A stretch of 64,000 bases of DNA. Source: Candidatus Levyibacteriota bacterium (lineage in GTDB: Bacteria; Patescibacteriota; Microgenomatia; Levybacterales; UBA12049). The notes under the pieces are model-generated. The model saw only the letters and a list, made by a program, of their open reading frames with translations. It did no database searches and was not told the origin of the DNA. A program made the translations under genes and the position numbers. The stretch lies in NCBI GenBank assembly GCA_029260905.1, contig JAJDCH010000012.1, positions 2,249 through 66,248 of the forward strand, in the 5' to 3' direction. Of the stretch, positions 4,587 to 52,696 are shown piece by piece (positions within the stretch are counted from its first letter, which is position 1; the number at the start of each line of letters is the position of its first letter).

Positions 4587-4619
4587 AATTTATAAAAATA
4601 ATCTTTGTCTTTTGCTTAC

Positions 4620-4647
4620 CACTTTTTGCTTATCACTTTTTGCTTAT
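4620..4647 (+). repeat. CACTTTTTGCTTAT x2 (14-mer) perfect tandem repeat, preceded by a partial copy, in the signal-peptide coding region
   Basis: Direct reading. Confidence 0.75.
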
Positions 4648-27452: not shown

Positions 27453-27737
27453 CTATCGTCCCAGCGCAATAGGCAGAGGTTCTGTGAGATAAACATGAGA
27501 TTTTGCATCAACAAAGCCTGAGCTACTTGCTTTTTTTGAAACTTCAATCAAAGATGCCTCCTTTAAGTATCTTTCTTTAAGAATTGCATTTGCTTTTCTA
27601 TAGCTTGATAAAGATTCTTCTAGTTTCACCAACTCCACACCAGTAGTTGAAACATTATTCTCAACACCAACTCTCACAATTGTCAAAACAACAATTATGC
27701 TAAAAATTATTGAAATAATAAATATTGGTTTCTTCAT
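27453..27737 (-). CDS. FtsL-like small bitopic division protein
   Basis: 94 aa, one TM helix then a coiled-coil region, located between rsmH and ftsI. Confidence 0.5.
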   Translation of the reverse strand: MKKPIFIISIIFSIIVVLTIVRVGVENNVSTTGVELVKLEESLSSYRKANAILKERYLKEASLIEVSKKASSSGFVDAKSHVYLTEPLPIALGR

Positions 27738-36004: not shown

Positions 36005-36670
36005 TCAAAGAGCACCGCGACCAGAGATCATAGCCCATGGAGTTTTGAGAATTATCCAAAAATCATAAAAAATTGATCTTCTTTTCGCATACTCAGCATC
36101 CATCTGGATTCTTTTATCAAAATTAATATCAGACCTTCCGGCAACCTGCCAAAAACCTGTAATTCCAGGCTTGACCGAAAGCACGACTTTTACTGCATCT
36201 TTTGTATAAGGATATTTCTTCTGTTGCTCAGTCAACTCATCTGGATAATATGCGCGAGGTCCAACTATACTCATCTCACCTTTTAAGACATTTATAAATT
36301 GGGGTAATTCATCAAGTGAATACTTTCTGATAAATTTTCCAACCTTTGTAATTCTTGGATCATTCTTTAGCTTATAGCTTCCTTTTTTATAAGCATTATA
36401 TAGTTCTTTATAACGCGGATCTTTTCTAAGCAGGATGTGAGCATCTTTCACCATTGAACGAAATTTATACATCTTGAAGCGTTTCCCAAACTGACCAACC
36501 CTTTCTGGTGTATCAGCAAGAATTGTTCCTTTTGAATTTAATTTTATTGCAATAGTAACAGCAATAATAATGGGAGAAAATATGAAAAGGAGGATGATTG
36601 ACAAAATTACATCAATAATTCTTTTGGCAGTATCATAAAGGCCCTTTTTTTCTGATTCTTTATTTGACAT
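36005..36670 (-). CDS. Polyprenyl-phosphate hexose-1-phosphate transferase (small monotopic bacterial sugar transferase, PglC/WbaP C-terminal type)
   Basis: KRFKMYKFRSM and the signature DELPQFINVLKGEMSIVGPRA. Confidence 0.85.
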   Translation of the reverse strand: MSNKESEKKGLYDTAKRIIDVILSIILLFIFSPIIIAVTIAIKLNSKGTILADTPERVGQFGKRFKMYKFRSMVKDAHILLRKDPRYKELYNAYKKGSYKLKNDPRITKVGKFIRKYSLDELPQFINVLKGEMSIVGPRAYYPDELTEQQKKYPYTKDAVKVVLSVKPGITGFWQVAGRSDINFDKRIQMDAEYAKRRSIFYDFWIILKTPWAMISGRGAL

Positions 36671-36673
36671 TTC

Positions 36674-37759
36674 TTATGCTAAGTGTTCGTGTTTAGTACC
36701 CTCAAGTTTTTCAACAAACTTCTTAACCTTTGGTATTGAACTTTTCGGACAAACAAGTGTAACATCATCAGTTTGCACAACAACCATCTCCTCAAGATCA
36801 ATACCTACAACAAGACTTTTACCACCAATATTATAAACAAGTGAATCTGAACTATCCTCAACCAAAACATTGCCTCTTATAACATTATCTTTTTCTTTTT
36901 CGGAAAGTGCCTCCTTGAGCGCCTCCCATGCGCCAATATCGCTCCATTCAATGTTTTCTGAAATAACATATGCATCTTTTGGATCAAGCTTTTCCAAAAT
37001 CACATTGTCAAAATGAATTTTTTCAAGGTCCGGATAAATCTTTCCCAAAACTTCATAAAAATTATCAGTACCCCAAGAATCAACTATTTCTTTAAGTCCT
37101 TTATAAACATCTGGCGCAAACTTTTGATATTTCTTCCACAAAAAATCAGGCGTTGTAACAAAATAGCCCAAATTCCAAGTATGCTCTCCGCTTGTCAAAT
37201 ATCTTTTTGCAGTTTCACTATCAGGCCTGTATTTAAAGTCAACAAATGAATAAAAAGGAATATCGTTTCTACTTGATACAGGGTCACCATGTTTTATCCA
37301 GCCAAGGTTCTCACTTGCAAATCTAGGCTTTTGCGAAACAAAAACAATTCTATCTTTTTCTTCAGTTATTATCTCGCCTGCTGTTTTTAGTATTTTCCTG
37401 AAATGCTTTTCATTTTTAACCAAATGATCACTCCAAAGAATTACCATTGGCTCATCTGGCGCAACTTTAGTTAAGATACCAGCCATCAGACCAACAGCTG
37501 GTCCCACATCCCGCATCTTTGGCTCTCCCACCACATGATCATGGGGAAGATCTGGCAACTGCTTTCTTACTATATCTACATACGATTTTCCTGTTGCCAC
37601 AAATATATCTTCATATTTAAAATCTGGCTGAAGTCTTTCAACTGCCAACTGAAGGGTAGATTTATCCCCAACAATTTTCTCAAACTGCTTTGGAGTGTTT
37701 TTTCTTGAGAGTGGCCACAGCCTGCTACCAACTCCTCCTGCAAAAATCACAATTTTCAT
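36674..37759 (-). CDS. Mannose-1-phosphate guanylyltransferase-like NDP-sugar pyrophosphorylase
   Basis: MKIVIFAGGVGSRLWPLSRKNTPKQF N-terminus, typical of ManC/GMP. Confidence 0.7.
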   Translation of the reverse strand: MKIVIFAGGVGSRLWPLSRKNTPKQFEKIVGDKSTLQLAVERLQPDFKYEDIFVATGKSYVDIVRKQLPDLPHDHVVGEPKMRDVGPAVGLMAGILTKVAPDEPMVILWSDHLVKNEKHFRKILKTAGEIITEEKDRIVFVSQKPRFASENLGWIKHGDPVSSRNDIPFYSFVDFKYRPDSETAKRYLTSGEHTWNLGYFVTTPDFLWKKYQKFAPDVYKGLKEIVDSWGTDNFYEVLGKIYPDLEKIHFDNVILEKLDPKDAYVISENIEWSDIGAWEALKEALSEKEKDNVIRGNVLVEDSSDSLVYNIGGKSLVVGIDLEEMVVVQTDDVTLVCPKSSIPKVKKFVEKLEGTKHEHLA

Positions 37760-37777
37760 ACTTTACACATTATAATA

Positions 37778-38857
37778 TCAAAAAAGATTATTAACAACTA
37801 TTTGAAAACTTTTCTTAAAATTTTCAAATTTAAATTTGCTCGAATTCACCACTGCGCCTTCAGGATTTAGCTTTAGTCCATTAAATTTTTTAATTGCTCC
37901 AATTAGTGATTCTTTGGTTTGCTTTTCAAATAAGATTCCTGTTTTATTATCAATTACAATCTCTCTTGCGCCACCTTTTTCAAAAGCAATAATAGGTTTT
38001 CCAAAAATTTGGGCCTCAATCATCACCAATCCCAAATCTTCATATCCAGGAAAAATAAGCGCCTTACAGCTTCGATAATACTTAATAAGCTCTTCATCGC
38101 TTACTTTTCCAACAAATTCAACAGTTGGTCCTGATATTTTTTTATAATACTCAATATCACCATCACCAACTATCTTGAGGTTAATTCCAAGCTCATTTGC
38201 AGCAGCGATTGCAAGATCAACTCTCTTGTACTTTGTAAACTTCGAAAGCCTGGAAACAACCACGAAGTAATTTCCTTCCCTTGATTCTTGATTCTTGATT
38301 CTTGATTCTAACGTTACTGGTGGATAAACAACATCTGCTTCACGTTTGTAATATTTCTTAATCCTTTTTCTAACCTCCTCTGAGATGGCAACAATCTGGT
38401 CAGGCCTTTTTGATGCCTGCAAATCCCAAATTCTCAAACCATTAATAATTGGTTTTGATAATAAACGCAAAATCTTATTTGAAAAATATTCATCATAACC
38501 ACTCCAAAGATAACGAGTGGGAGTAAGCATATAACAGAGGTGCTTTGTCTTTCCTGTTGTTATTATTCCTTTTGCAGACTCGGACGTAACAGATATAACT
38601 AAATCAAAATCTTTAAAATTAAAAGATTCAAAAGCAAATGGCATAAATGGCGCAAAAAATTGATGATAATTTTTTGCAAAAGGAATATTTTGCAAAAAAG
38701 ATGGATTTACCTTAAAAACTTTAGCCCAGGAAGCCTTGTCTTTGTCATAAACAGATGTAAAAAGAGGAGCATCAGGATACAATTTATGAAGTGCCAAAAG
38801 AACACGTTCTGCTCCTCCCCATTTATTTACCCTATCATAGACAAAAGCTACACGCAT
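37778..38857 (-). CDS. GT4-family (GT-B) glycosyltransferase containing an in-frame heptamer repeat
   Basis: C-terminal EX7E region EDLGLVMIEAQIFGKPIIAFEKGGAREIV. GAATCAA x4 encodes LESRIKNQESRE. Confidence 0.8.
   Translation of the reverse strand: MRVAFVYDRVNKWGGAERVLLALHKLYPDAPLFTSVYDKDKASWAKVFKVNPSFLQNIPFAKNYHQFFAPFMPFAFESFNFKDFDLVISVTSESAKGIITTGKTKHLCYMLTPTRYLWSGYDEYFSNKILRLLSKPIINGLRIWDLQASKRPDQIVAISEEVRKRIKKYYKREADVVYPPVTLESRIKNQESREGNYFVVVSRLSKFTKYKRVDLAIAAANELGINLKIVGDGDIEYYKKISGPTVEFVGKVSDEELIKYYRSCKALIFPGYEDLGLVMIEAQIFGKPIIAFEKGGAREIVIDNKTGILFEKQTKESLIGAIKKFNGLKLNPEGAVVNSSKFKFENFKKSFQIVVNNLF
38281..38308 (-). repeat. GAATCAA x4 (plus strand TTGATTC x4) perfect tandem heptamer inside the GT4 gene
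   Basis: Direct reading. Confidence 0.85.
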
Positions 38858-38901
38858 ATTTTGGCTTATGGCATATAGCTTATGGCATATTGAACCACAA
38901 A

Positions 38902-40077
38902 CTACTTACTACCCGCTACCTCCTTATAAATATTTATTGTTTGTTTTGCCATTTTTTCCCAGGAATACTTCCTAACCCATCCCAGACCCGAGTCAATAAT
39001 TTCTTTTTTCTTTTTATCATCAAGTACATAGACTTCATTCATCTTTTTTGCTATATCCCCAACTGAATTTGGATCAAAATAAAATGCGTGAGTAGAAAGA
39101 ACCTCTCTAAAAACAGCAATATCAGAAACTGCAACCAGAGAACCATGGGATATTGCCTCAACGGGAGTCAAACCAAATCCTTCAGCAAGAGATGGAGAAA
39201 GTAAAGCAATTGAATTCTCATAAAGTCCATAGAGCTCAGCATCTTTTACATTATGTTTAAACACTATGTTTGTGTAATTCTCTTTGTCGATTTTCTCTTC
39301 AAGTTTTTTATAAAAATAATCATCTTTTCCAACAAGAATAAGCATCACATCTTCATTAATATTCGTTCTAAAAACAGAAAATGCTCTTATCAATTTTTCC
39401 AGATTTTTATGCGGATATGCATTCCCAACATATAAAAAGTATGAAGTATTATGTATTAAGTATTTAGTGTTATTTTTTCTTTCCCCTGATGCTTTATGCT
39501 TGCTACTTGATACTGCATAGCCCACTCCCTCATATGTCACTGCAATCTTATCCTCATGAACCCCAAGTGTCTCAATAAGATCTTTCCCAACCGTCTCAGT
39601 TGGAACAATTATTTTCTTTGCTTTATCTACTGCACGTTTTACAACATATTTATAACCAAGCCGCTTGAGATTATACAAAGAAAGGGGAAGAGTGGATGCC
39701 TTGCCTGTCGGGAAATGGCTTATGATCAGATCGTGAATTGTAATAACATACGGCTTTTTATAAAAAGCAGGTGCAGAAAAATATGGAAAGTGCATCAGGT
39801 CAAGCTCCTCTTTATTCAAAATCATGGGAAATCTAACCTGTTCTTCAATTGAATGCCAACGAATATCAGCAATAACAATTTTCCAGTTTTTACTAATTCC
39901 CAATTCCTTACCTGCCTTGCCGGCAAGTAGGTTCCTTATTACTTCATAATCTCTACTGCGGATAAACAAAACATATTCATTGTCTTCATCAATCTTTTGC
40001 AATTCACTAACTAGATTTCTGATATATCTACCAACCCCAGTCTGTCCCCACAGCCTGCAATCAATGCCTATTTTCAT
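38902..40077 (-). CDS. GT4-family glycosyltransferase
   Basis: AEGFGLTPVEAISHGSLVAVSDIAVFREV (EX7E). Confidence 0.8.
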   Translation of the reverse strand: MKIGIDCRLWGQTGVGRYIRNLVSELQKIDEDNEYVLFIRSRDYEVIRNLLAGKAGKELGISKNWKIVIADIRWHSIEEQVRFPMILNKEELDLMHFPYFSAPAFYKKPYVITIHDLIISHFPTGKASTLPLSLYNLKRLGYKYVVKRAVDKAKKIIVPTETVGKDLIETLGVHEDKIAVTYEGVGYAVSSSKHKASGERKNNTKYLIHNTSYFLYVGNAYPHKNLEKLIRAFSVFRTNINEDVMLILVGKDDYFYKKLEEKIDKENYTNIVFKHNVKDAELYGLYENSIALLSPSLAEGFGLTPVEAISHGSLVAVSDIAVFREVLSTHAFYFDPNSVGDIAKKMNEVYVLDDKKKKEIIDSGLGWVRKYSWEKMAKQTINIYKEVAGSK

Positions 40078-40101
40078 GCAATAAGTATAACACAGGAAAG
40101 T

Positions 40102-41013
40102 TTAAGAAGAGTGTTTTCTATGAAAAATATCAATCCCCTTGTTAACCAGCCAATTTACAAACTTCGGATATTTTTTATCATAATTTTTTTTGAAAAAAAT
40201 TCTCATTGCATCAAAGCGGTGGCCTTGCATTTTTTTCTTAATAACATGATCAGCAGTTATTTCATTATGATTCCTATTTCGAATTCCTGATGCAGCACTT
40301 CCCAGATGGATTATGCTAACATCTGGAACAAAATAAATTTTATACCCCAACTTTTTTAAATCAAAACAAAATTGAATATCCTCACCATAAAAAAAATAGT
40401 CTTCGTCCCACCAATTAATTCTTTCACCCACTTCGCGTCTGACAAAAAGAAACGCACCAGATATCACATCTACCTCATGAATTTTTGATAAATCTTTAAA
40501 GCCCTGGATATATCCACCAAACAATTTTGTTTTTGGAAGTATTTTCTCAAGTCGGGAAAAATGAGCAAATGCATTCCAAGGCGTTGGAAATCCACGATGA
40601 CAGGCATCATCAAGTGCACCATCAACTGTTTCGATCCTACAAGTCACAGCTCCAGCATCTTTATTTTCATCCATAAATTCAATCATCTGATTTAAGGTCT
40701 TAGGATTTACAATAGTGTCGGGATTTAGAAACAAAACATATTTGCCATTGGCAAGAGACAATGCTTTATTATTACCCTTTGCAAAACCAATATTTTGCTT
40801 ATTATCAATAACTACAAAGTTTTTAACTTTTGTCTGCTTTTTATATTTTTCAAACACAGCAAGGGATCCATCGGGGCTTGCGTTATCTGCCAAAATAATT
40901 TCAAATTTACCTGATGCAACTTCATGAGGATAATTCTCCTCAATCGATTTCACACAATCAAGCGCTAGGTCTTTCGTATTATAATTTAGAATAATTATTG
41001 ATAATTCTCTCAT
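40102..41013 (-). CDS. GT2-family (GT-A) glycosyltransferase
   Basis: LSIIILNYNTKDLALDCVKSI...ILADNASPDGS (DXD-type). Confidence 0.8.
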   Translation of the reverse strand: MRELSIIILNYNTKDLALDCVKSIEENYPHEVASGKFEIILADNASPDGSLAVFEKYKKQTKVKNFVVIDNKQNIGFAKGNNKALSLANGKYVLFLNPDTIVNPKTLNQMIEFMDENKDAGAVTCRIETVDGALDDACHRGFPTPWNAFAHFSRLEKILPKTKLFGGYIQGFKDLSKIHEVDVISGAFLFVRREVGERINWWDEDYFFYGEDIQFCFDLKKLGYKIYFVPDVSIIHLGSAASGIRNRNHNEITADHVIKKKMQGHRFDAMRIFFKKNYDKKYPKFVNWLVNKGIDIFHRKHSS

Positions 41014-41453
41014 CGTAAATCTTACTCCTTATATCCTACATCTTCATAAACCCGATTTAGTTTCTCAGCTATACTTTTCCAGGTATATTTTTGCTCCACC
41101 AACTTCCGTCCATTTTTACTTATTCTTTCATAAAGTTTTTCATCTTCCAAAAGACTTATGGTTTTTATTGCCAAATCAATTGATAGATCAGATGCCATAA
41201 TGTCCTCATTATCTTTTGCGCCAAGACTATCTGCGCTCATTTTTGTGGTTATAACTGGTGTTCCACAACTCATGCTTTCCAAAATCTTATAACTTGTCCC
41301 ACCACCAACTCTTATTGGAGCAAGCAAGACATCTGCTTTCTGAAAAATCTTCTCAGTTGGCAATTCAGAATTTTTTTCATCGAACAAAATATCTGGATCA
41401 TTTGTTAGATTTTTAATTGAGGTAGAAATTTTTCTCCCCACAACCCACAACTG

Positions 41454-41478
41454 GATCTTTGATCTTTGATCTTTGATC
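41454..41478 (-). repeat. GATCTTT x3.6 tandem heptamer (coding strand GATCAAA), sitting at the frameshift point
   Basis: Direct reading. Confidence 0.85.
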
Positions 41479-41563
41479 TAATTTTTGGCCAGATTTCTTC
41501 AATTATGAATTTTACAGAATCTCTATTTTGTATCCATTTAAAATCTCCAATAAATAGTATCTG

Positions 41564-41596
41564 CTTTGATCTTTGATCTTTGATCTTTGATCTTTG
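41564..41596 (-). repeat. CTTTGAT x4.7 tandem heptamer (second tract of the same unit, translated as QRSKIKDQRSKQ)
   Basis: Direct reading. Confidence 0.85.
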
Positions 41597-42232
41597 GAGA
41601 AACACGAACTTTTCCGTATCCACTCCATTTGAAACAACTTCAGCGCTAGCTCCTGCATCCCTCATCACTTTTTTATCTTCTTCAGAAACAGCAATCAATT
41701 TGTCGGCTTTTTTCCACGAAGCTTCTTCTTCTTTTTTTATTTTTGCGATATCAATATTCAAAAATGGTCGCATAAAAAAAGGCGCTTTGTCAACAAATCT
41801 CTGATAAACCTGATATTCGATATTGTGCTCTGCCAAAACAATTGGAATCTTTGTTGTGGGCAGATTGTGCATGACATAAAATGTTTCAATGTGAATAAGA
41901 TCATATTTATTTTCTTTCAACTCTTTCTCAATCTCTTCTTTAAGCAAAAAATTGGTATGTCCGATTCTTAGAAAAGAATCATTACCCTTTATTGAATAAA
42001 AAACATTTTTCAAAGACCACTGTCTACCTGTCGCAACTGAAATTACTTTTTTACAAATTTTCTGAAGAACTTTTATATCATTATCAGTTATCGTTTGCCT
42101 AAATCTTTTCTCACAAATAAGTGTAATTTCGTGTTTTTTCGACAACTCTTTTAAGAGATTAAATAGCCGCACTTGTCCACCAGAATACAAAGGGTATGGA
42201 AAATAAGATGAAACAACAAGTATCTTCATAAA

Positions 42233-43990
42233 TTATGAATCAACAATAAAACCTTTTACTTGATGATCCCACATAGTCTTAAATACTCCATTTTTTTTCT
42301 TTAAAAGCCTGTTCGGATCTCCGTCTTCAACAATTTTTCCTTCATTTATCACTATAATTCTGTCCATTTTCTTTAAGGTTGAGAGTCTATGCGCTATTGC
42401 AACTACGGTTCTTTTTTTCATCAACTTCTCCAAAGACTCCTGAACAGCATGCTCACTTTCACTATCAAGGCTGCTTGTTGCTTCATCAAGAATTAAGATT
42501 GGAGCGTTTTTGATAAAGGCTCTTGCAATTGCAATCCTTTGCCTTTGCCCTCCTGACAGCTTCACCCCGCGCTCTCCAACAAGTGTATCATAACCCTTTG
42601 GAAGCTTCATTATAAAATCATGCGCCTGCGCCAATTTAGAAGAATTTATCACATCATTTTCAGAGGCAGAAGGATTACTATAGATTATGTTTTCTCTTAT
42701 ACTTCTATGAAACATGCTTGTATCTTGAGGAACAAAAGCAATCGCACGTCTCAAGCTATCAAGTGTTACGAGTGAAATATTTTGGCCATCAATTTTTATC
42801 TCGCCTTTTCTTATATCAAAATGACGAAGAATTAGAGATACGAAAGTTGTTTTACCCGCACCAGATCTTCCAACCAGTCCCACCTTTTCACCAGATAATA
42901 TTTTTAAAGAAAAGTCTCTAAATATTCTGGTATTATCATATTCAAACGTTATATTATCAAAAACAATATCTCCTTTTTCCGCCCTTAAATCAACCGAGCC
43001 TTTTCTGTTGACAATTGAATGTTCTTTTAAAATCTCAGAAAGTCCTTCTTTTGTTTTTCCATAATTTTCAGCTGTATCTCTTAGCTGTTCACCGATAAAA
43101 AACAACTGACTTGACATTTCTGTAACTATTGCAATAACCATCACAATCACTCCGATACTAATCAGTTCGTTCTGGAAAAGATAAATAGATGTTCCTATCA
43201 TCATAAAAATAAAACCAAAAATTAAGATTCCGTTTATTGTAAGCGTGTACTCAAAATATCTCCATTGCTTAAGGCCAGTATCGTGTTGATTTTTAACAAA
43301 TCCGCCTATATATTTCCTTTCGCCCGATACTGAAGCATATTCATGAACCAGGGAAATGTTGGATAAAGAGTCAACTATTCTTCCTTTTAATGCTGACAGT
43401 GATGAGGCAAATTTATAAGCATGAGGTTGTAGAATTTTTGCAAACCAGATATTTGCACCCAGAAAAAGAACTGCCCAAGCTACGATAATAACACCAAGCC
43501 TGAAATCGCTTTGCCATGCAATCCCAACATACCATACAAGCCCGACAATAAGTGGTAAAAACTGCCACAAAATTTTTTCAAATATTGATTCAGCGCCATC
43601 AACAGCATTCGAAACTTTATTCGTAAGCGCTCCTGCAAATCTACTATTAAAGTAATCCTTGCTATGCAGAGTTAAGTATTCATAAAGTTTTCTATATGCA
43701 GATGTCCTCAAATTCATAAACCACTGCATTCCCGTGAACCCACTTCCTCTCCAAAATATATGAGCCACAAGATAAAAAATAGGGTATAAAACACCCCACA
43801 CCCAGACTGTTTCAATACTAATTGGGTCTGCTGCAACTGAATCTGTCAAATTTCTAAGAACTATAATACCTATCCTCTCACTAGCAGTTGCAAGAAATAC
43901 GAATATCAATGCGCTTATCGCCCATTTCTTATGAATTTTGGTAATAAAAAGTCCAAATGAGATTGGATTTTTGGGAATCTTATTTTCCAT
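42233..43990 (-). CDS. ABC exporter, fused permease-ATPase (MsbA/PglK-like), a candidate lipid-linked oligosaccharide flippase
   Basis: Six-TM N-terminal domain, Walker A GRSGAGKTT, signature LSGGQRQRIAIARA, Walker B ILILDEATSSLD. Confidence 0.85.
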   Translation of the reverse strand: MENKIPKNPISFGLFITKIHKKWAISALIFVFLATASERIGIIVLRNLTDSVAADPISIETVWVWGVLYPIFYLVAHIFWRGSGFTGMQWFMNLRTSAYRKLYEYLTLHSKDYFNSRFAGALTNKVSNAVDGAESIFEKILWQFLPLIVGLVWYVGIAWQSDFRLGVIIVAWAVLFLGANIWFAKILQPHAYKFASSLSALKGRIVDSLSNISLVHEYASVSGERKYIGGFVKNQHDTGLKQWRYFEYTLTINGILIFGFIFMMIGTSIYLFQNELISIGVIVMVIAIVTEMSSQLFFIGEQLRDTAENYGKTKEGLSEILKEHSIVNRKGSVDLRAEKGDIVFDNITFEYDNTRIFRDFSLKILSGEKVGLVGRSGAGKTTFVSLILRHFDIRKGEIKIDGQNISLVTLDSLRRAIAFVPQDTSMFHRSIRENIIYSNPSASENDVINSSKLAQAHDFIMKLPKGYDTLVGERGVKLSGGQRQRIAIARAFIKNAPILILDEATSSLDSESEHAVQESLEKLMKKRTVVAIAHRLSTLKKMDRIIVINEGKIVEDGDPNRLLKKKNGVFKTMWDHQVKGFIVDS

Positions 43991-44023
43991 AAATAAATTA
44001 TAGCAGAATACGAGGCTAAAAGT

Positions 44024-45454
44024 TTATTTTCTAATATCAAAAATTACATATTGAGAATCACTCTTTATAATATTATACTGCCTAGCAAAATTTAGCTCAT
44101 TTTTTCCTGGGTTAACAAGGATCATATAATCAGCTCCTTTTTCTACCATTTCTTCGACTGAGTTTTGCTGACTCGCCCAACCTTTTCTCTTAGTCTGATA
44201 CAGAAATGATGTGTCTCCATCATAGACTGCAATTACTTTTGCACCCCTTGGAGTCAAACGATCAACTGCCATGCCAGCTGCAATTATAGATCTATTGTTG
44301 ATATTAAAGTAATCCTTTATCTGATTCCAGCCAAAATAGAAAAGACAGAATATGCAAGTCAACAAAATTACTTTACCTAGGGTTGATTTATACAAATAAA
44401 AACTTCCTATTGCAAAAATGATCGAAAGACTGGGCATGATGAGAATCTGATAATAGTCATGCTGCACATTTCCTGTTGCAAAAACAGTCACATAAAATAT
44501 AGAACTGATCAAAAAAGAAGATAAAAAAATCCATTCTTTGAGCATACGAATTTTCCATATCCCAAAAAACAAAATCACAACACCTAGATATCCACTAATT
44601 AATTTTATTATTCTTTCATAGCCAATCCAACGGAAAAAGGAAGGCCTAAAACGAATCCCATTTCCATTTAAAAGCCACTTACCCGCTGGCACACCTTCAG
44701 GAAACTGCATAATCCAGATCCTCCAAAACGCCAATGGCGTTACTGTCAAAATGGCAAAAAGCCAGAGTTGCCATTTTTTTAAAAACCCCCAACCCCATTT
44801 TTGATAAGAAAGAACAATCATCGGAAGTGTAAAAAATAATGCATAAGGCTTGAGAAGAAAAGCTGATGCAGTAAATATTGTTGCCAGTAAAAAATATATT
44901 GTGCTTTTGGTTTTGAGCTTTATGCTTTTTCCAATCCACAGATCAAAAAAATAAACACCACCCAGAATTGCAGCTACCATCAAAGTATCAGGCAAGATCG
45001 TCCTTCCATAATAAATGTTATAAGGAATAAATGCGTAAAAGAAACTACTTAAAAGTCCAAGCATTTTATTACTTTTTCTTGCAACAATCAAATATAAAAA
45101 CAGGGACGAGAAAACAGAAGAGATTATACTAACCAACCTTCCCCATTCTTCAAGCGTAAAAAAACCAAATGTCTTAAATAAAAATGCTTGTTTGATGTTA
45201 TAAATCGGAAACTCCACCATCCTATATCCTTCGGGGTTATCTATCCCTGATGGAACATTTGAGAGATCATGGTATTTGGGATGAAGTATGTCAAATCCCT
45301 TTTCAACAAATTCTCTTGAAACACTGGAGGTGTCAGCCTGGCGCCAACTATGCCAGTCAGCAATAGGACTATCAAACCTGTAAAGACGCACCAAAAATCC
45401 ACCAATTAAAATCAAAACGAGGATAAAAATATGTAGCTTTTTCTTTGAAAACAT
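44024..45454 (-). CDS. GT-C-fold glycosyltransferase, family 39/83-like (ArnT/PMT-like)
   Basis: Polytopic protein whose N-terminal loop motif DWHSWRQADTSSVSREF is typical of GT39-annotated proteins. Confidence 0.55.
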   Translation of the reverse strand: MFSKKKLHIFILVLILIGGFLVRLYRFDSPIADWHSWRQADTSSVSREFVEKGFDILHPKYHDLSNVPSGIDNPEGYRMVEFPIYNIKQAFLFKTFGFFTLEEWGRLVSIISSVFSSLFLYLIVARKSNKMLGLLSSFFYAFIPYNIYYGRTILPDTLMVAAILGGVYFFDLWIGKSIKLKTKSTIYFLLATIFTASAFLLKPYALFFTLPMIVLSYQKWGWGFLKKWQLWLFAILTVTPLAFWRIWIMQFPEGVPAGKWLLNGNGIRFRPSFFRWIGYERIIKLISGYLGVVILFFGIWKIRMLKEWIFLSSFLISSIFYVTVFATGNVQHDYYQILIMPSLSIIFAIGSFYLYKSTLGKVILLTCIFCLFYFGWNQIKDYFNINNRSIIAAGMAVDRLTPRGAKVIAVYDGDTSFLYQTKRKGWASQQNSVEEMVEKGADYMILVNPGKNELNFARQYNIIKSDSQYVIFDIRK

Positions 45455-45465
45455 TTATCTTAATA

Positions 45466-48400
45466 CTATTTAACTCTTGCAATATCACCATATTTATCAA
45501 AGCTAAATATATAACTGCTTGTTGGATTTTTTAATGCTTCTTTTTTTGCAAGACCTATTGAATCAACATATGTTATATTTGGCAGATTATCCCCATAAAT
45601 AAACCACAAACCATCCTCAACCCCGGTTGGAAACGCCCAAACACCCTTGTATTTAACAGGTGTATTAACAAGATACACATAATCCTTATTATTAAGATTT
45701 TGATAATTTGCTCTAAAGAAATAAAGCGTATTTTTGGTAACAAATCCTGATTCTTTCCATTTATTTTCTGCTTTTACCAAACTTTGATAATAAAAAAGTA
45801 ACAATACAAAAACAAAAACAAAAGCTATTAATGCTTTGTGCTTTTTATTTATCTTGGCAGAAACAAGATTAACAAAATATATCAAACTAATTGAAAAACC
45901 AATTGACGCAAGATACATATATCGATCAGCAATATTTCCAAGACCTAGAAAGGGAATTAGCGCAGAAAAAGCAAACACAATTCCAAAAACGATCTCTTTT
46001 CCATCTTTTCCAAAAAAGTCATTAATTACCTTTCTGGATTTATAAATAACAAATGATGCTACTCCCAAAAAGATTATTATTAAAAAACCAACGGTAAAAG
46101 AATTGTCTCTTAATCCATCTCTTAAAGAATTATAAACCGGAAGAACCAAGTCTCCTCCCAGAAAAAGCGCGATATACCCTAAGAAATTACCTATAATATT
46201 TGGGATAAGTTTTAAGAAATTATAAGTATAGTCACCTCCAGATTGAAATGCATCTGCAAAAATTCTAAGTATGTAATATGCGGGAATAAGCGCAAAAAAC
46301 AAAACATGCGGGAGGTAATACTTCAACTTTTTTGTTGCCCTAAAAAGACAAATATCAATAGCTAGAAAAACAAAAGGAATCGCAACTGCTATTTCATATG
46401 AGGCAAACGCTAAAAGACTAAATACAAATGCCAGACAGTATGACAAAATAGATCTTTTTTCCCTGAATCTATAAAAACTAATAAGTCCATAAATTATAAA
46501 AACCACTGCCAAAACACCAGATAACCCTGAATACCAAAAAACATTTTCTGCATGAGTTGGGTGAATTGCAAAAATAATCGAAACCAAAAATGCAATCCAA
46601 CCTTTTTTGCTCACTTGTTTTGCAAAAAGAAATACGCCAATAATTCCAAGATAATGAAGAAATGTAATAAATACATGATAGGCATGTGGCTGAAATGAAA
46701 ATATAACGTAAAGAAAATAAGTAATTATTTTATCAAGCGGTCTATAGAAAAATCCCTGAGCGTCAACAAAATGCTTTAGGAGCATTGATCCATCATCGTT
46801 TGCTGCCCATCTAAGCCAGGTAAAATCATCTGCGACAAAAAAGTTTCCCATTGATGGAAGAAATACAAAAACAATTATCATTAATAGATAAAAAAAGTAT
46901 GCAATATTTGTTGTGAGAACTCGACCAAGCTCTGTAATCCAGGATATTTTATTTTTTTGATAAAGAAGAAGGGAACCAACTCCAATACCAGATAATATCC
47001 ACAAGCTTTCAGCCACTTTTGATGCCTCAAAAACATCAATCAATATCGCATTTACCAAAAGCCCCAACACGCCTCCGGCTAGACCATACGCAAACCCACT
47101 TGCTAAAGAAGGCTTTGATATTGGAGCAAGTTTTAAAAGAACGACATACAGCATCACAAAAATACCGATAAAACTAAAAAGCCCCAACACGCCAGTCTCG
47201 CCTATTGCCCTAAAATAATCATTATCAGTTGCAAGAGTTATGGTTGAATAACCACTTCCCAAAAGCTTATTTCTTTCATACGCTTTCCAGGCATTTGGCC
47301 ACTCAGCCTGGAATCTGGTTGTAAAAGATATATCATAAAGAAGAACTTTTTTTACCAGAAAACTTCCGGAAACTGTTGATATCTGAACACTGCCACTCTG
47401 AAGCCTTCTTCTCCTTGCCTCTTCAGGAGTAAGTGTTCTTTTTACAATGGCAGAATCAGTTTTTTCCAAATCCTTATCTTGAGACAAACCAATAAATGCA
47501 GATCCCTCAGGAAGCTCTTCTCCTGAATTGGGTCCTTCTATGTCAGATTTTAATCCACTTGGCACTGTTCCACCAATCAACTTTCCCTGATCGTCAACCA
47601 CAACCTCTGCAACTCGAAATGTAGAAAGAAATCTCCTTGCAGTTGACTCACTAAAAATCGATAAAAATAAAACACTTATTATCAAAAGAGGAATAATAAG
47701 AATTTTTTTCTTATACAAGACTAGAGTAAAAATGCTTCCTATCACAAATGCAACAAAAGCTGCTCTTTGAGCCGTAAAAACAAGCATGATAATACCACTT
47801 AGAAAAATCAAGCCAGTCAGAATTTTCCAAATCCTTTTTTTGATTGCCAAAAATCCACCCAAAATGATCGGAATCACAAGTACAGAATAAGCCGCCAAAT
47901 CATAGGATCCTCCAAAAGTACTGGTAATCCTGCCTCCTGGTGGCAGACAAAGAGGTATTCCTTTTGCAAATTCTTCATTCCCTGTCTGAAATGATGGAAA
48001 ACAAGCTCTTATTTCTTGAAGACTAGGAAGCGCGCTCCACAAAATTAGATAATATCTCTGACCAAGCGCATAAAGAAAAACAGCAGAGGCAGTACTTGCA
48101 AGAATTACAAAAAAGTCTCTGAGGTCACTTTTTTCTTTTATTGCAGAAAAGGCAACAAAGAAAAGAATCAAATACTCAATTCTTCTTATATATGAAAGGA
48201 CAGCAATGCTTGGGAAAAAATTTGTGAGATTGGGGGCTATGAACAAAAACGAAAAAACAAGTGATAAAAGCCCAACCAACCAGTACAATCCAACCGATAC
48301 AGACATTGGCTTAAACAAGCTTACTTTTTTTCGCAGAAGCTGCACAAACCAGATAAAAACAGTTATAAGTATGAAAAAATCTTCAAGTCTTATATAGACC

Positions 48401-48516
48401 CATGTGTGGTGAATATTTATTGATGGAAGCTTGGGATAAAGCGCAACAAAAGGAATCAATCCTCCAACAAGAATCTTTAAAATGTATTTGTCATATAACC
48501 CTAAGAGCTTTTTCAT
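45466..48516 (-). CDS. Large (1016 aa) polytopic membrane protein. The N-terminal region is O-antigen ligase/polymerase-like and the C-terminal region GT-C/PMT-like
   Basis: More than 20 hydrophobic segments. The central soluble loop is rich in charged residues. The fusion architecture is inferred from composition only. Confidence 0.35.
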   Translation of the reverse strand: MKKLLGLYDKYILKILVGGLIPFVALYPKLPSINIHHTWVYIRLEDFFILITVFIWFVQLLRKKVSLFKPMSVSVGLYWLVGLLSLVFSFLFIAPNLTNFFPSIAVLSYIRRIEYLILFFVAFSAIKEKSDLRDFFVILASTASAVFLYALGQRYYLILWSALPSLQEIRACFPSFQTGNEEFAKGIPLCLPPGGRITSTFGGSYDLAAYSVLVIPIILGGFLAIKKRIWKILTGLIFLSGIIMLVFTAQRAAFVAFVIGSIFTLVLYKKKILIIPLLIISVLFLSIFSESTARRFLSTFRVAEVVVDDQGKLIGGTVPSGLKSDIEGPNSGEELPEGSAFIGLSQDKDLEKTDSAIVKRTLTPEEARRRRLQSGSVQISTVSGSFLVKKVLLYDISFTTRFQAEWPNAWKAYERNKLLGSGYSTITLATDNDYFRAIGETGVLGLFSFIGIFVMLYVVLLKLAPISKPSLASGFAYGLAGGVLGLLVNAILIDVFEASKVAESLWILSGIGVGSLLLYQKNKISWITELGRVLTTNIAYFFYLLMIIVFVFLPSMGNFFVADDFTWLRWAANDDGSMLLKHFVDAQGFFYRPLDKIITYFLYVIFSFQPHAYHVFITFLHYLGIIGVFLFAKQVSKKGWIAFLVSIIFAIHPTHAENVFWYSGLSGVLAVVFIIYGLISFYRFREKRSILSYCLAFVFSLLAFASYEIAVAIPFVFLAIDICLFRATKKLKYYLPHVLFFALIPAYYILRIFADAFQSGGDYTYNFLKLIPNIIGNFLGYIALFLGGDLVLPVYNSLRDGLRDNSFTVGFLIIIFLGVASFVIYKSRKVINDFFGKDGKEIVFGIVFAFSALIPFLGLGNIADRYMYLASIGFSISLIYFVNLVSAKINKKHKALIAFVFVFVLLLFYYQSLVKAENKWKESGFVTKNTLYFFRANYQNLNNKDYVYLVNTPVKYKGVWAFPTGVEDGLWFIYGDNLPNITYVDSIGLAKKEALKNPTSSYIFSFDKYGDIARVK

Positions 48517-49366
48517 AAGTTTGCTTTAGATAACTATTATTTGTAATTGTGCTTAAAAAAATTAAAGATTTTGCCTTTGTAATTAAGAGATTTTTTGCTA
48601 AATTATATTCAAAACTACTTTTATGTTTTTTATAAAAATATAAAATATTTTTATAAATATTTACTACTGCAAAACTTCTATTTGATGACCCTTGATCTTT
48701 ATGAGTTGCAGAAACAGATGGATAAAAATAAGTAAAGAAATTATTTTTTCTTGCTCTATAACAAAACTCCATATCCTCAACATACATAAAAATGTTTTCA
48801 TCAAAGCCTTCCAACTTTTCAAAAACACTTCTTCTGACCATCATCAAACTTCCCTTTACCCAATCAACTCTTGATGGATTTCTCAAACCCCAAAACCCAA
48901 TCTTTTCAATTCCCAACAGGAAAAGGCTTAACTGAAAAGGATCCAAAAAATTACCATACGACAGCTGCCTTGAACCATCAGTATTTTTCATATCCGCGCC
49001 AACTACTGAGGCATCGCTTGTTTTTTCAAAAAAAAGAGACATCTCCAAAAAGCCCCGATCTTCAACAATAATATCATTATTTAGAAATAGAAACAAATCT
49101 CCTTTTGCTTTTTTTGCGCCGATATTGCAACCCGTACTAAAACCTGCATTTTCATTGTTTAAAATAAGTAATAAATTTTTATAATTTCTCTTTCCAATTT
49201 CTTTTTCTAACTTTTCTCTGTTTTCTTTTTCTGATCCATTGTCTACAAGAATTACTTCAAATACACCTGTTTCTAGTTCTTTTTTAAAATTTTTATAAAT
49301 CGAATCTATACATAAAAGAGTCATCTGAGGCTTATTGTAGTTCAGGGTAATTATTGAAAGATTCAT
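48491..49366 (-). CDS. GT2-family glycosyltransferase
   Basis: LSIITLNYNKPQMTLLCIDSI...ILVDNGS. Confidence 0.75.
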   Translation of the reverse strand: MNLSIITLNYNKPQMTLLCIDSIYKNFKKELETGVFEVILVDNGSEKENREKLEKEIGKRNYKNLLLILNNENAGFSTGCNIGAKKAKGDLFLFLNNDIIVEDRGFLEMSLFFEKTSDASVVGADMKNTDGSRQLSYGNFLDPFQLSLFLLGIEKIGFWGLRNPSRVDWVKGSLMMVRRSVFEKLEGFDENIFMYVEDMEFCYRARKNNFFTYFYPSVSATHKDQGSSNRSFAVVNIYKNILYFYKKHKSSFEYNLAKNLLITKAKSLIFLSTITNNSYLKQTYEKALRVI

Positions 49367-49369
49367 ATC

Positions 49370-49963
49370 CTAGCTAAACCATGCTGCCCTTCCTAACCTG
49401 TAGTCAAAATCTTTAAGCTTGCGATCACTTATCACTTCAGCCGGCACACCCCCAACAATCTTTCCTTTTTCAACATTTTTGGTTACAACTGCGCCTGCTG
49501 CGACAACTGCTCCTTTCCCGATCTTAACACCAGGAAGTATTATTGCGCGAGGTCCTACAAAAACATAATCTGCTATTTCAACAGGTTTTGTGATAGCATT
49601 AAAATCTTTTGAATTTAGATCATGCTGAGCATTGTAAATCATTACATCAGATGCTATATCAACATGATCTCCGATAATTAATTTATCCCGTCCATCAAGC
49701 ACTGACCCCTCTCCAATTATGGTATCTTTTCCAATAAAAATATTTTCTGGATTATAAAATCTTGCACCCATATGAACTGATGATCCAACGCCAATTGAAA
49801 CACCAGATATTCGATAGAAAACTTTTCTGACAAAATGTGAAGGTATAAATCCAACAATACGAAGAATCATTACCCAAAATTCCAGAAGAATAGTATCTAG
49901 TCTATTACTAGTTTTTTTAATAAGTTCTTCTGTGGATAGCACTTTTCCTGCTTTATCTTTCAT
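49370..49963 (-). CDS. Hexapeptide-repeat (LbH) sugar O-acetyltransferase (WcaF/WbbJ-like) with an N-terminal membrane anchor
   Basis: Left-handed beta-helix repeats IGKDTIIGEGSVLDGRDKLIIGDHVDIASDVMIY. Confidence 0.7.
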   Translation of the reverse strand: MKDKAGKVLSTEELIKKTSNRLDTILLEFWVMILRIVGFIPSHFVRKVFYRISGVSIGVGSSVHMGARFYNPENIFIGKDTIIGEGSVLDGRDKLIIGDHVDIASDVMIYNAQHDLNSKDFNAITKPVEIADYVFVGPRAIILPGVKIGKGAVVAAGAVVTKNVEKGKIVGGVPAEVISDRKLKDFDYRLGRAAWFS

Positions 49964-49995
49964 AACTTATGATTTCTTGCATCATATATCCTAAA

Positions 49996-51147
49996 TCATT
50001 TATCGCTTCCTGCTGCTTTTTGTATAACCCTAAGTGTTTCCTTTGCTGTTTTTTCCCAACTAAATTTCTTTATCTGTTTTTTTCCTTTTTCTACCAATTC
50101 TTTTCTCAAATCCTTATCATCAACTAGCCTTTTGATCTTCTCAGCTATATCATCAACATCTTCTGGATCTACGTAAAGCGCTGCATCTCCCCCAACTTCA
50201 GGCAGACTACTGACATTACTTGTTATTACCGGACAACCATCTTTCATCGCCTCGAGAACAGGAAGTCCAAATCCCTCGTAGAGAGATGGGAGGACAAAAC
50301 AGATCGCATTTTTATACAAAATACTTAAATCACGATCATCAACATTTTCAAGAAACTTAACCTGTTTTTCAATACCAAATTTTTGTGGGGCTGATAAAAT
50401 TTCTTCAAACTGCCAACCCTTCTTACCAACAATCACCAGCTCCAGATCCGCTTTGCTTAGTACTTTATACTTAACACTTAATACTTTACTGAATGCCTCT
50501 ATTAACTTTGCAATATTTTTCCTAGGCTGAAGAGTCCCAACAAAAAGAACAAAATTATTACCTATTTTATATTTTTTCTTGAAATCCTTCATATTTCCTA
50601 AATCATAAGTCTTAAAACTTAAATCATTTTTAATTCCGGGATATGTAACCACCACCTCGCTTGATGACTTTTTATACTCCCTGATTATATCATTTTTACT
50701 TGAATTACTGATTGTAAGAATACTCTTTGCATTTCGCACTGAATACTTTGTCCAACTTTTTAGTTGATGTAGGTCATTTGCATTAAAAAGCTCAGAAAAA
50801 TACAAATATGATAAATCCATTACTGATATTACCGTTGGACATGGTGAGAGTCTGGGAGCATAGTGACTGGGGCTAAAAAAAACATCAGGCTTTATCCCAC
50901 CAAAAAATAAATCCAAGGGCAACCTCCATTGTGTCCACAGCCTGCCAGGCCTTAAGACTCGGTACTTCCAATTGCCAGATTCTTTTGGCATATCAGAGAG
51001 CTGCTTATTCTTTAGATAAACAACAAAACTAATGGCTGATGGCTGATGACTGATGACTGAAAACTCCCTCAATAATTCAAACGCGTATTGTCCTATTCCG
51101 ACGCGCTTTTCTACATTTGCCTCATTTCCATCAATTCCAATTATCAT
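49996..51147 (-). CDS. GT4-family glycosyltransferase with an in-frame heptamer repeat near its N-terminus
   Basis: [36 protein letters not shown]. The tract ATGGCTG/ATGACTG x4 encodes [11 protein letters not shown]. Confidence 0.8.
51032..51059 (-). repeat. ATGGCTG ATGGCTG ATGACTG ATGACTG tandem heptamer (coding strand CAGTCAT/CAGCCAT) inside the GT4 gene
   Basis: Direct reading. Confidence 0.8.
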
Positions 51148-51149
51148 AA

Positions 51150-51686
51150 TTACATTCCCGGACTTGCAACGGACAATCTATCCCGCTTAATTCCAAGTAT
51201 TTCAATTGCATCAGTTCTTGTTTGATCTGAAATACAAATTATCTGATCACATTCCTTCTTTACCCAATTCAATCTTCGCCTTTGAGTTTGAACTATCCTG
51301 CTATGAGTCTCTTCTGGATATCGATAAACAATAAGGTCATAAAGAATAGTCACTTTTTTGGCGCGTTTAGTTGGAGGCTGTGTCCAGTCAGATGAGACAA
51401 AAACATCAACTGGTCCAATCAATTCTTCAATTGGCATTATGTGAAGCTGATTCCAAAAAACATCAAGCATGGTCGATGGCATCTTCTTTAGATTAAGAGT
51501 AAAATTTTTATTTCTTTCTGCTATGTCTTTTGCAAATTGAGGTACTTTTTTCCGGAGGGAAGAGAAAAAAAGAATATATTCATTTTTTTTATCAACTGCT
51601 GCCAAATTCTCAACCAAATTTTGCACATAGTTTGCAACACCTGTATTCTCGTATGCAGTTTGTGATATGTCTATTCCTATTTTCAT
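51150..51686 (-). CDS. GT4 N-terminal-domain-only protein, a likely remnant of a duplicated glycosyltransferase
   Basis: MKIGIDISQTAYENTGVANYVQNL parallels the N-terminus of the adjacent full-length GT4 ([25 protein letters not shown]). There is no EX7E C-domain. Its stop overlaps the next start (ATGA). Confidence 0.45.
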   Translation of the reverse strand: MKIGIDISQTAYENTGVANYVQNLVENLAAVDKKNEYILFFSSLRKKVPQFAKDIAERNKNFTLNLKKMPSTMLDVFWNQLHIMPIEELIGPVDVFVSSDWTQPPTKRAKKVTILYDLIVYRYPEETHSRIVQTQRRRLNWVKKECDQIICISDQTRTDAIEILGIKRDRLSVASPGM

Positions 51687-51760
51687 AATTTAAATAGCTA
51701 AATAGTTGTATGGCTATATTGCTCATAACTATCTAGCCATATAGTTATCTCGCTATTCCA

Positions 51761-52696
51761 TTACCCCTCGCTTGAAAATTTCAATGGAAAACTTTTTTCG
51801 TAATCTGATCTGTTTTGAGAAATATTTATTACTAGATCAGCAATAAATCCTGTGAAGAAAATCTGAAGACCGGCTATGAAAAGAAGTATTCCAAAAAGAA
51901 GCAGTGGTCTATCTCCTATCGTTTCTCCAGAAAACCACAATACAATCAAATAAGAAAGAATAACTAATCCAATAAACGCCGCCCCACCTCCGATAAAACC
52001 AAAAAAATGCATCGGCTTCTTGCCAAATTTGGAAAGAAAAATCATGGTAAACATGTCTGGAATATCTTTAAAGACTTTTGAAAAACCGTATTTGGATTTT
52101 CCAAACTTTCGTACCTCATGAACAACGGGAATCTCGGTTACACTAAACCCACTTTGCACAGCTAAAAGTGGTATAAATCTATGAAGCCCTCCATACAGTC
52201 GAAGAGACTTTGCAAGATCTTTTGAATATGCCTTAAATCCACAGTTATAATCATGTACATCTATACCAAAAATATAGTTTAATAATTTATTAAAAATCTT
52301 TGATATCACAAGCATTTTCTTCTTATCTTTTCTTTCTTTTCTCCATCCACAGACCAAATCTACTCCCTTCCTACTTTCTTTCAAGAAGCCTGAAATCTCT
52401 GAGGGCTTATCCTGAAGATCTGCATCCATTGTAATCACAATTTCTCCTCTTGCTTTTGCAAAACCAAGAGTTAATGCCTCTGATTTACCTAGGTTCCGAC
52501 GAAATGAAAAAATGCGGATCGATTTGTCTTCTTTGGATAAGTCTTTTAATATTTCAAGTGATTTGTCAACTGATCCATCGTCAACAAAAACCACTTCTGA
52601 ATCTTCCTTCAAGTCTGACAAGACAGTCTTCAGCTCTATATAAAAGGCCTCGACTCCTTCTTCTTCATTAAAAACAGGAACGACAATTGAAATCAT
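51761..52696 (-). CDS. GT2 polyprenol-phosphate sugar synthase (DPM1/Ppm1/ArnC/GtrB-like) with C-terminal TM helices
   Basis: MISIVVPVFNEEEGVEAF...VVFVDDGSVDKS...ITMDADLQD, then two C-terminal TM segments. Confidence 0.75.
   Translation of the reverse strand: MISIVVPVFNEEEGVEAFYIELKTVLSDLKEDSEVVFVDDGSVDKSLEILKDLSKEDKSIRIFSFRRNLGKSEALTLGFAKARGEIVITMDADLQDKPSEISGFLKESRKGVDLVCGWRKERKDKKKMLVISKIFNKLLNYIFGIDVHDYNCGFKAYSKDLAKSLRLYGGLHRFIPLLAVQSGFSVTEIPVVHEVRKFGKSKYGFSKVFKDIPDMFTMIFLSKFGKKPMHFFGFIGGGAAFIGLVILSYLIVLWFSGETIGDRPLLLFGILLFIAGLQIFFTGFIADLVINISQNRSDYEKSFPLKFSSEG

Follow-up and report, generated by a model that had tools for sequence, protein, structure and literature searches.

A glycosyltransferase gene frameshifted at an intragenic heptanucleotide tract in a Levybacteria glycan cluster

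Introduction

A 64,000-nucleotide stretch of contig JAJDCH010000012.1 from a Candidatus Levyibacteriota bacterium, referred to here as the window, carries a family 4 glycosyltransferase (GT4) gene that is divided between two open reading frames (ORFs). The division falls in a tract of tandem 7-nt units. What does such a break represent: a dedicated phase-variation switch in its OFF state, a gene on its way to being lost, an error of assembly, or an accident at a repeat of a more general kind? The initial annotation, made from the letters of the window, proposed a contingency locus. Our analysis favours a knockout by slippage that can be reversed, at a heptamer microsatellite of a generic intragenic kind, over a dedicated switch, and we assign this reading a probability of roughly 0.65.

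Results

Two ORFs are halves of one GT4 glycosyltransferase

The gene, its two halves and two heptamer tracts within it, T1 and T2, are located as follows. The tracts were delimited with Tandem Repeats Finder (TRF).

41022..42229, minus strand: GT4 (retaining GT-B) glycosyltransferase, frameshifted allele; identified by Pfam, orthologue alignment and an AlphaFold2 (AF2) model
41405..42229, minus strand: N-half ORF, 274 aa; N-domain and first β-α of the C-domain, ending in a 19-aa out-of-frame tail
41022..41450, minus strand: C-half reading frame, 142 aa, from LWVVGRK through the stop, with the donor-binding residues PIRVGGGTSYKILE
41454..41479, minus strand: T2, perfect (AGATCAA)x3.7, site of the frame break; TRF period 7, 100% match
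41564..41596, minus strand: T1, perfect (AGATCAA)x4.7, in frame as QRSKIKDQRSKQ; TRF period 7, 100% match

The two ORFs, which overlap by 46 nt, are halves of one GT4 enzyme. Pfam finds Glyco_transf_4 only in the 274-aa ORF and Glycos_transf_1/Glyco_trans_1_4 only in the 142-aa ORF. When one unit is added to T2 the domains become contiguous, with PF13439 at residues 16-207, PF13692 at 222-365 (full profile) and PF00534, and positions 2-142 of the 142 in the Glyco_trans_1_4 profile are matched across the junction. The initial annotation had claimed one enzyme in two ORFs, and this part of it is borne out.

The AF2 model of the repaired protein is a two-Rossmann GT-B fold with a predicted local distance difference test score (pLDDT) of 91.4 and a predicted template modelling score (pTM) of 0.88. 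Its best Foldseek matches are MshA (3c4q), BshA, PglA and PimA, with E values of about 1e-16 to 1e-14; PimA is also the best sequence match. The EX7E region lies in the C-half ORF, as had been noted, but the motif in this family reads G-x7-E (PIRVGGGTSYKILE) and retains the second Glu only (E320). This residue is invariant in 45 sequences, whereas the position of the first Glu is Gly, compared with GGESFGIVLVE in PimA.

The window allele does not encode this protein as a single intact polypeptide, because it is split at T2. The N-frame continues through T2 into the out-of-frame tail SSCGLWGEKFLPQLKI* and ends at the TAA at 41405-41407; in the C-frame, a TAG lies immediately 5' of T2. The N-half ORF is identical to the database protein P0001. 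Exact-sequence look-ups of this ORF and of the neighbouring GT2 gene matched no further contigs, and the best match in the protein search, leaving aside the window's own N-half, has 66% identity.

Copy number of T2 sets the reading frame

On the coding (minus) strand both tracts read (AGATCAA)n in identical codon phase (RSKIKDQRS...). Their starts are 114 nt apart and the gap between them is 84 nt. T1 is translated as an interdomain loop that directly precedes the strand ILFIGDF. T2 forms a surface loop that connects helix 233-253 to strand 260-266 of the AF2 model, and both loops have low pLDDT in an otherwise confident structure. The initial annotation recognized both perfect period-7 tracts and the in-frame translation of T1; it ended T2 one base short, at 41478, and placed the tracts 90 bp apart. 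Its central claim, that the frame breaks exactly in a heptamer tract, agrees with our finding that the frame changes inside T2.

Adding one unit to T2 gives a single 404-aa ORF (...WPKIRSKIKDQRSKIQLWVVGRK...), and removing two gives a single 397-aa ORF. With a change of 0, -1, +2 or +3 units the product is truncated in every case (OFF). Copy number therefore sets the frame as predicted, with a GT4 of about 400 aa restored by one additional unit and the product still truncated after the loss of one. The +1 form aligns without gaps to the nearest orthologue P0003 (...WPEIRNKNKEQRTKIVLWIVGRE...) across T1 and T2, and also to 44 orthologues. It would make T2 33 nt long with 4.7 copies, equal to T1 and to the modal array size in the lineage. 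The most economical history would therefore be the loss of one unit from a 4.7-copy T2. The window holds three perfect period-7 arrays with 3 or more copies, compared with 0.03 expected from shuffles, which excludes chance. Since AGATCAA contains GATC, a Dam/GATC-based switch was considered; it was rejected because relatives have arrays without GATC at these sites.

The out-of-frame C-half is undecayed

Downstream of the break, comparison of the C-half with orthologues revealed no extra stop and no indel. At positions conserved in at least 90% of orthologues, the C-half keeps 47 of 49 and the N-half 79 of 83. The ratio of C-half to N-half identity to orthologues is 1.01, which ranks 37th from the lowest among 45 sequences (index 36 counting from 0). 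The additional lesions and relaxed conservation that follow a first lesion in a decaying pseudogene are not seen in the window allele. This suggests that the frameshift is recent, or that the sequence is still under selection.

The T1 and T2 sites in orthologues and strains

We examined 83 orthologue loci at the DNA level; metagenome contigs among them were assigned to taxa by protein identity alone. The window allele is the only one with a copy-number break at T2, and the rest are intact there. About 14 perfect T1/T2 arrays occur among the orthologues, and only the window's T2 is out of frame (about 13/14 in frame). Arrays at the T1 site are found in L006, L032, L036, L041 and L051, with units AAGAACC, AATTCAG, ATTTACA, AAAATTC and AAAGTTC. 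Arrays with other units occupy the T2 site in L003, L004, L020, L041, L049, L061 and L069 (AAGAACA, ATCAAAA, AGGGGAA, TCAAAAG, AAAATCA, AAATGGC and AATTTCA). Many further orthologues have 7-aa-periodic remnants at these sites.

Several T2 units differ across lineages by one base that is carried in every copy (AAATCAA, AGATCAA, AAGTCAA, AGAACAA). The sister genomes L036 and L049 have flanks that are 85% identical and gap-free, yet their arrays are (AAATCTC)x4.6 and (CAATTTC)x4.9. As judged from these alignments, the period-7 arrays at the T1 and T2 sites show concerted evolution. T1 and T2 of one gene also share long identical strings, 26 nt in the window, 17 nt in L166 and 24 nt in L012, whereas only 2% of control pairs share at least 10 nt. 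The L012 string, CTTCGCGAACGCTCCGCGGGGCA, is a GC-rich insert at both sites and not an array.

Strain-level comparison was possible in another species, for which five loci (L164-L168) are 99.7-99.97% identical over 3.4 kb. The orthologous T2 site is (AGCAAAA)x4.6 in L165-L168, with one variant unit in L165, and x1.6 in L164. The difference between L164 and the other four is exactly 21 nt, three units, and in frame. The T2 site therefore changes by whole heptamer units in nature.

Other disruptions and length differences among the orthologues were inspected individually. In L047, an in-frame TAG is located in its own T1 array (about 1500-1545), whose units alternate between TAGTTCG and AAGTTCG. 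The T variant is in units 1 and 3, which implies that a two-unit duplication put the stop codon in frame. The split in L069 has no connection with arrays and comes from a T-homopolymer indel near residue 305. P0134 (138 aa) was rejected as a second split allele, since its gene is cut by the contig end. P0002 and P0122 differ in length by 7 aa, which reflects only an alternative start codon.

Two further observations concern these loops. Short GC-rich palindromic inserts are found in frame in the T2 loops of L008, L017, L024, L029, L036 (about 8760-8800), L047 and L073; an example is TCCCGCAAGTGGCGGGA, with the peptide IIPQVAGQ. One such insert lies inside a heptamer array. They recall in-frame palindromic mini-elements such as the Rickettsia palindromic elements (RPEs). 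Separately, a PMT_2-like gene in L068 contains a 33-nt array (7045-7077) exactly equal to the window's T1 (CAAAGATCAAAGATCAAAGATCAAAGATCAAAG); the GT4 orthologue in L068 is only about 50% identical to that of the window.

Period-7 arrays are a lineage-wide trait

Our census of arrays covers two neighbourhoods of the genome, the glycan cluster and the dcw region. In 1.14 Mb of Levybacteria loci there are 64 perfect period-7 arrays with 3 or more copies, compared with about 0 expected. In the same sequence there are two arrays of period 5, one of period 6, two of period 8 and none of periods 9-15. With those of the window the total is 67, comprising 57 in frame within long ORFs, 7 intergenic and 3 flagged as frame breaks. 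The window's T2 is the sole true break among the latter, so that 57 of 58 coding-scored arrays are in frame. The other two flags (L006 9222-9242 and L041 12694-12726) were rejected, as these arrays are at the 3' ends of glycosyltransferase genes and supply the stop codon. They contain TAA (GAATTAA, AACTAAT), and a change in their copy number would affect no more than the C-terminal tail or the distance to the next gene.

The lengths of coding arrays cluster around 30-34 nt, with a maximum of 45 nt; most have 3-5 copies and the maximum is 6.4. The longest arrays of all are intergenic: (ATAAATC)x11, 77 nt, at L005 614-690, and (AACAATA)x6.6 at L059 9241-9286. Units are A-rich, and 62 of the 64 arrays have units that are stop-free in all three phases. 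AAATCTC, AAAAATC and AATTTTC together account for 34% of arrays. Identical units are found at 4.5% of pairs of non-orthologous sites, compared with 0.16% under a null of matched composition and stop-free units. In the cluster loci, in-ORF arrays are confined to glycosyltransferase genes (GT4, GT2, PMT_2/GT-C-like) and to a few recurrent loops; none was found there in Wzy-like, NTP_transferase, Bac_transf or Hexapep genes.

Apart from T1 and T2, the window contains the following arrays in coding sequence, some of them in housekeeping genes.

38280..38309, minus strand: perfect (AGAATCA)x4.3, in frame, in the neighbouring GT4 gene 37778-38857, at the same interdomain position as T1
39437..39472, minus strand: degenerate AATACTT-type array, 79% match, in the GT4 gene 38902-40077, in the interdomain loop before FLYVGN
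51028..51060, minus strand: imperfect (TCAGTCA)x4.7, in frame, in the GT4 gene 49996-51147
28415..28445, minus strand: imperfect (AGATTTA)x4.4, in frame, in the RsmH gene 27734-28648
86-114 and 445-477, minus strand: two interrupted TCAAAAC-type arrays, in frame, in an isoleucyl-tRNA synthetase (IleRS)-like class I aminoacyl-tRNA synthetase gene
24545-24571: interrupted heptamer array in a Mur ligase gene

The site orthologous to 39437-39472 (GT4_b residues ~190-215) carries perfect arrays in many relatives. The IleRS-like gene extends from 1 to about 1200 and runs off the left edge of the window, for which reason the ORF list does not include it; its array peptides are SKLKTQNSKL and KTQISILKTQN. 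All three perfect arrays of the window belong to GT4 genes, and its arrays in essential genes are interrupted. Perfect arrays do occur in housekeeping genes of relatives, as the RsmH loop described below shows. The relatives' housekeeping arrays are at the following positions.

L084 3576-3607
L089 3678-3710
L090 2017-2042
L097 8736-8766
L098 17380-17406

RsmH arrays are found at one loop (residues ~58-78) in four genomes, each with a different unit; those in L084, L089 and L090 are perfect and share their loop with the imperfect array in the window's RsmH. MurB arrays are at one loop in two genomes, again with different units. For comparison we assembled a set centred on RsmH in the dcw region, composed of the 15 closest relatives (152 kb) and 65 loci of other bacteria (557 kb). 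It contains 7 period-7 arrays in the relatives and 0 in the other bacteria. This amounts to about 1 array per 22 kb in dcw regions, a density similar to the 1 per 18 kb of glycan loci. The comparison shows that the trait is not specific to glycan genes. The pattern expected of contingency repeats, with surface genes enriched and housekeeping genes avoided, is not what the arrays of this lineage display.

In an intergenic stretch of the window, (AAACTCA)x2.3 at 4573-4588 is followed by three copies of a 14-nt unit (TTTTGCTTATCACT) at 4610-4651, and the latter overlap the TTG start of ORF 4640-5938, which encodes a Thr/Pro/Ser-rich protein.

The surrounding glycan cluster

The target GT4 gene belongs to a conserved cluster for glycan assembly.

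36005..52696, minus strand: glycan-assembly cluster including the target GT4; Pfam, synteny in L001 and L003

In the order of transcription, the cluster begins with a GT2, a 178-aa GT4 N-domain protein, a GT4, a Hexapep acyltransferase and a second GT2. These are followed by a Wzy_C-like protein of 1016 aa, a PMT_2-like protein, an ATP-binding cassette (ABC) exporter and the target GT4. A GT2, two GT4s, an NTP_transferase (sugar-nucleotidyltransferase) and a Bac_transf initiating transferase complete it. The ABC exporter (ABC_membrane and ABC_tran, 585 aa; 42233-43990, minus strand), between the PMT_2-like gene and the target GT4, has no counterpart there in L001 and L003, the closest relatives with synteny.

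The 178-aa ORF (51150-51686, minus strand) contains a GT4 N-domain only and adjoins the full-length GT4 at 49996-51147. We considered it as a second truncated glycosyltransferase and rejected this, since its size is kept at 178-188 aa in L027, L032, L040 and L068. It is therefore a genuine small protein and no pseudogene, possibly a partner subunit. Its counterparts in relatives themselves host heptamer arrays. Directly upstream of the cluster, a 974-aa protein (52787-55711, minus strand) combines Kelch β-propeller repeats with an M23 peptidase domain. No Rfam family and no tRNA gene were found in the window.

Discussion

Our analysis suggests the following sequence of events. The target gene encodes a GT4 of a conserved Levybacteria cell-surface glycan cluster, and the loss of one 7-nt unit from T2 would have inactivated it. 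Translation is predicted to leave the frame in the loop before the second β-strand of the C-terminal Rossmann domain and to stop 19 codons later. The truncated product would be without the C-half that binds the nucleotide-sugar donor, and the glycan step is therefore presumably lost together with the function of the enzyme. Premature termination may also lower the expression of downstream cluster genes. T2 itself would be one member of a lineage-wide class of arrays of roughly 21-35 nt, located in tolerant surface loops of many proteins and turning over in whole units, probably by replication slippage. Selection would restrict these arrays to loops and keep them short, in frame and free of stops. 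A change of three units (21 nt, 7 aa) would be tolerated, whereas a one-unit step would survive only in dispensable genes such as the target GT4. Reversion by +1 or -2 units should be possible in principle, and plausibly in the source population as well. T2 would then act as a low-rate mutational switch, although the arrays are not specialised for switching.

A dedicated contingency locus, a reading built on the initial proposal, goes further. It holds that selection maintains the tracts in the cluster's glycosyltransferases for frequent, reversible ON/OFF switching of surface glycan structure, for example for phage escape or to modulate host attachment, and that the OFF phase was sampled. Much of its groundwork stands: an intragenic unit whose length is not a multiple of 3 sets the frame by its copy number, the orthologous T2 varies by units, and the target GT4 carries no secondary lesions. 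The restriction of in-ORF arrays to glycosyltransferase genes in the cluster loci, the contrast in the window between perfect GT4 arrays and interrupted arrays in essential genes, and the precedent of Neisseria pglE (PMC7157529) also speak for it. We nevertheless consider it unlikely. Arrays are about as dense in the housekeeping regions of relatives, including perfect ones in RsmH and MurB. The tracts are short, with 3-5 copies (3.7 in T2) compared with 13-38 in the hmw-associated tracts of Haemophilus influenzae (PMC2651432). Frequent neutral switching would leave many arrays out of frame, so the in-frame majorities (57/58 of coding-scored arrays, about 13/14 of those at T1/T2) weigh against it, and the sole polymorphism seen, between L164 and L165-L168, preserves the frame. 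That the gene is instead a dead pseudogene, with a fixed frameshift that is irreversible in practice, is improbable. The deposited annotation does hold only the truncated 274-aa product (P0001), and two more orthologues are disrupted (a stop codon in L047, an indel in L069), which shows that the gene is dispensable in some lineages. Against this are the undecayed C-half, which past the break has neither gained a stop or an indel nor lost conserved residues and whose C/N conservation ratio is not low, and the nature of the lesion, a one-unit change at a site known to vary by units in nature.

An artefact of assembly or consensus is less probable still. In this case the true or majority T2 would have 4.7 copies, with one unit collapsed or a minority variant picked. 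Repeats are classic sites of assembly error and the contig is metagenome-assembled, but an array of 26-33 nt is far below any read length, and the 66 other perfect arrays, from the window and independent assemblies, are not frame-broken, so that systematic collapse is not seen. In addition, L002 and L004, independent assemblies of the same allele, agree exactly. We find it hardly credible that the gene retains its function, whether by -1 ribosomal frameshifting at A_AAG in T2 or as a split enzyme of two polypeptides. T2 does hold TCA AAG, and tRNA-Lys slipping by -1 there would move translation into the C frame past its TAG, and the undecayed C-half would fit either arrangement. However, no orthologue needs recoding, since all are in frame at T2, and neither a canonical X_XXY_YYZ slippery site nor a stimulatory element is present. 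A split enzyme is disfavoured by the position of the break inside the C-terminal Rossmann domain rather than at a domain boundary, and the TTG of the C-half is not preceded by an evident Shine-Dalgarno sequence.

Several observations weigh against a slippage knockout at a generic microsatellite. Plain slippage does not explain why period 7 is favoured exclusively, and gives no reason for the recurrence of AAATCTC, AAAAATC and AATTTTC about 30-fold above the null. Nor does it explain the sharing of units between T1 and T2 within one gene in several lineages. Moreover, the one polymorphism seen in nature at T2 is a step of three units that keeps the frame, in another species. A tentative alternative, in our estimate possible but well short of an even chance, is that Levybacteria, and perhaps Microgenomates more widely, have a distinct process by which heptanucleotide arrays are written into coding sequence and homogenised. 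It could be an unusual property of the replicase or of repair, or a templated mechanism. Such a process may place arrays of ~30 nt with a preferred TCAAANN-like unit in fixed loops across the proteome, essential genes included, and may exchange sequence between sites, as the shared units of T1 and T2 would suggest. If so, 7-residue loop indels would be its normal output and frameshift knockouts like that of the target GT4 its by-products. Protein loops and surface glycans would then owe their variation to a lineage-specific engine, not to ordinary microsatellite slippage.

Members of the Candidate Phyla Radiation (CPR)/Patescibacteria are thought to live attached to host cells, and their surface glycans probably matter for attachment and exposure to phages. 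The locus offers a concrete, apparently recent OFF allele of a conserved glycosyltransferase, an orthologous tract that in nature differs by whole units from one near-identical strain to another, and a sharply period-7-specific, mostly intragenic class of microsatellites with concerted evolution. It raises the questions of which polymerase or repair features co-vary with the excess, and whether the variation of loops and glycans is adaptive. A practical consequence for metagenome-assembled genomes (MAGs) of CPR is that gene callers will split or truncate genes at such arrays.

Comparison with known systems

The glycosyltransferases for lipooligosaccharide (LOS), lipopolysaccharide (LPS) and capsule in Campylobacter, Helicobacter and Neisseria are classical contingency loci switched by homopolymers. 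There the unit length is 1, measured rates are high, and simple sequence repeats (SSRs) are depleted from housekeeping genes. The target GT4 resembles them in that a slippage frameshift would give ON/OFF control of a glycan-modifying enzyme, with a unit of 7 in its case.

A closer parallel is pglE of Neisseria meningitidis and N. gonorrhoeae, a protein O-glycan galactosyltransferase that phase-varies by an intragenic heptanucleotide repeat (PMC7157529). Both are glycosyltransferases of a surface-glycan pathway in which an intragenic 7-nt SSR sets the frame, with glycosyltransferases of the same pathway nearby. Unlike the target GT4, pglE has documented switching in carriage isolates, and SSRs are concentrated in surface genes. 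The target GT4 has 3.7 copies, its type of array is also found in essential genes, and its switching is a prediction. The locus therefore works like pglE but lacks two of the contingency features we tested, surface-gene enrichment and long tracts. In H. influenzae, hmw1A contains (AATTTTG)14 and a frameshift, and a gene for a TonB-dependent receptor contains (AACAACC)8-13 (PMC2651432). These too are heptamer tracts inside ORFs whose change in length truncates the ORF. They differ from the target in having 8-14 or more copies, in being strain-specific in a host-adapted pathogen, and in not being part of a genome-wide, period-7-only pattern.

In the literature searched we did not find heptamer arrays or SSR-driven variation of glycan genes described in CPR. 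The CPR 'hypervariable repeat' (PMC6851277) was considered as the same phenomenon and rejected, since it is an in-frame 9-mer.

With respect to the arrays as a class, the nearest counterparts are the GGGAATC/GGGGAYT arrays of Xanthomonas and Nostoc and the heptanucleotide repeats of Calothrix (PMC4692102). The Levybacteria arrays share with the Xanthomonas/Nostoc type an excess of period 7 with other long periods normal, and length and sequence that vary between close relatives at conserved positions. The Xanthomonas/Nostoc type is mainly intergenic and G-rich with G-quadruplex potential. In contrast, about 85% of the Levybacteria arrays are in ORFs, where they are in frame, A-rich (TCAAANN-like), located in conserved loops and capped at about 5-6 copies when coding. 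That heptameric SSRs are over-represented in bacteria was reported by Mrazek et al. 2007, as cited in PMC4692102, and a slippage effect of the polymerase footprint is the hypothesis published for it (PMC4692102, citing Mrazek 2007). With the arrays described here, this old and unexplained bacterial 'heptamer excess' becomes testable in a small genome.

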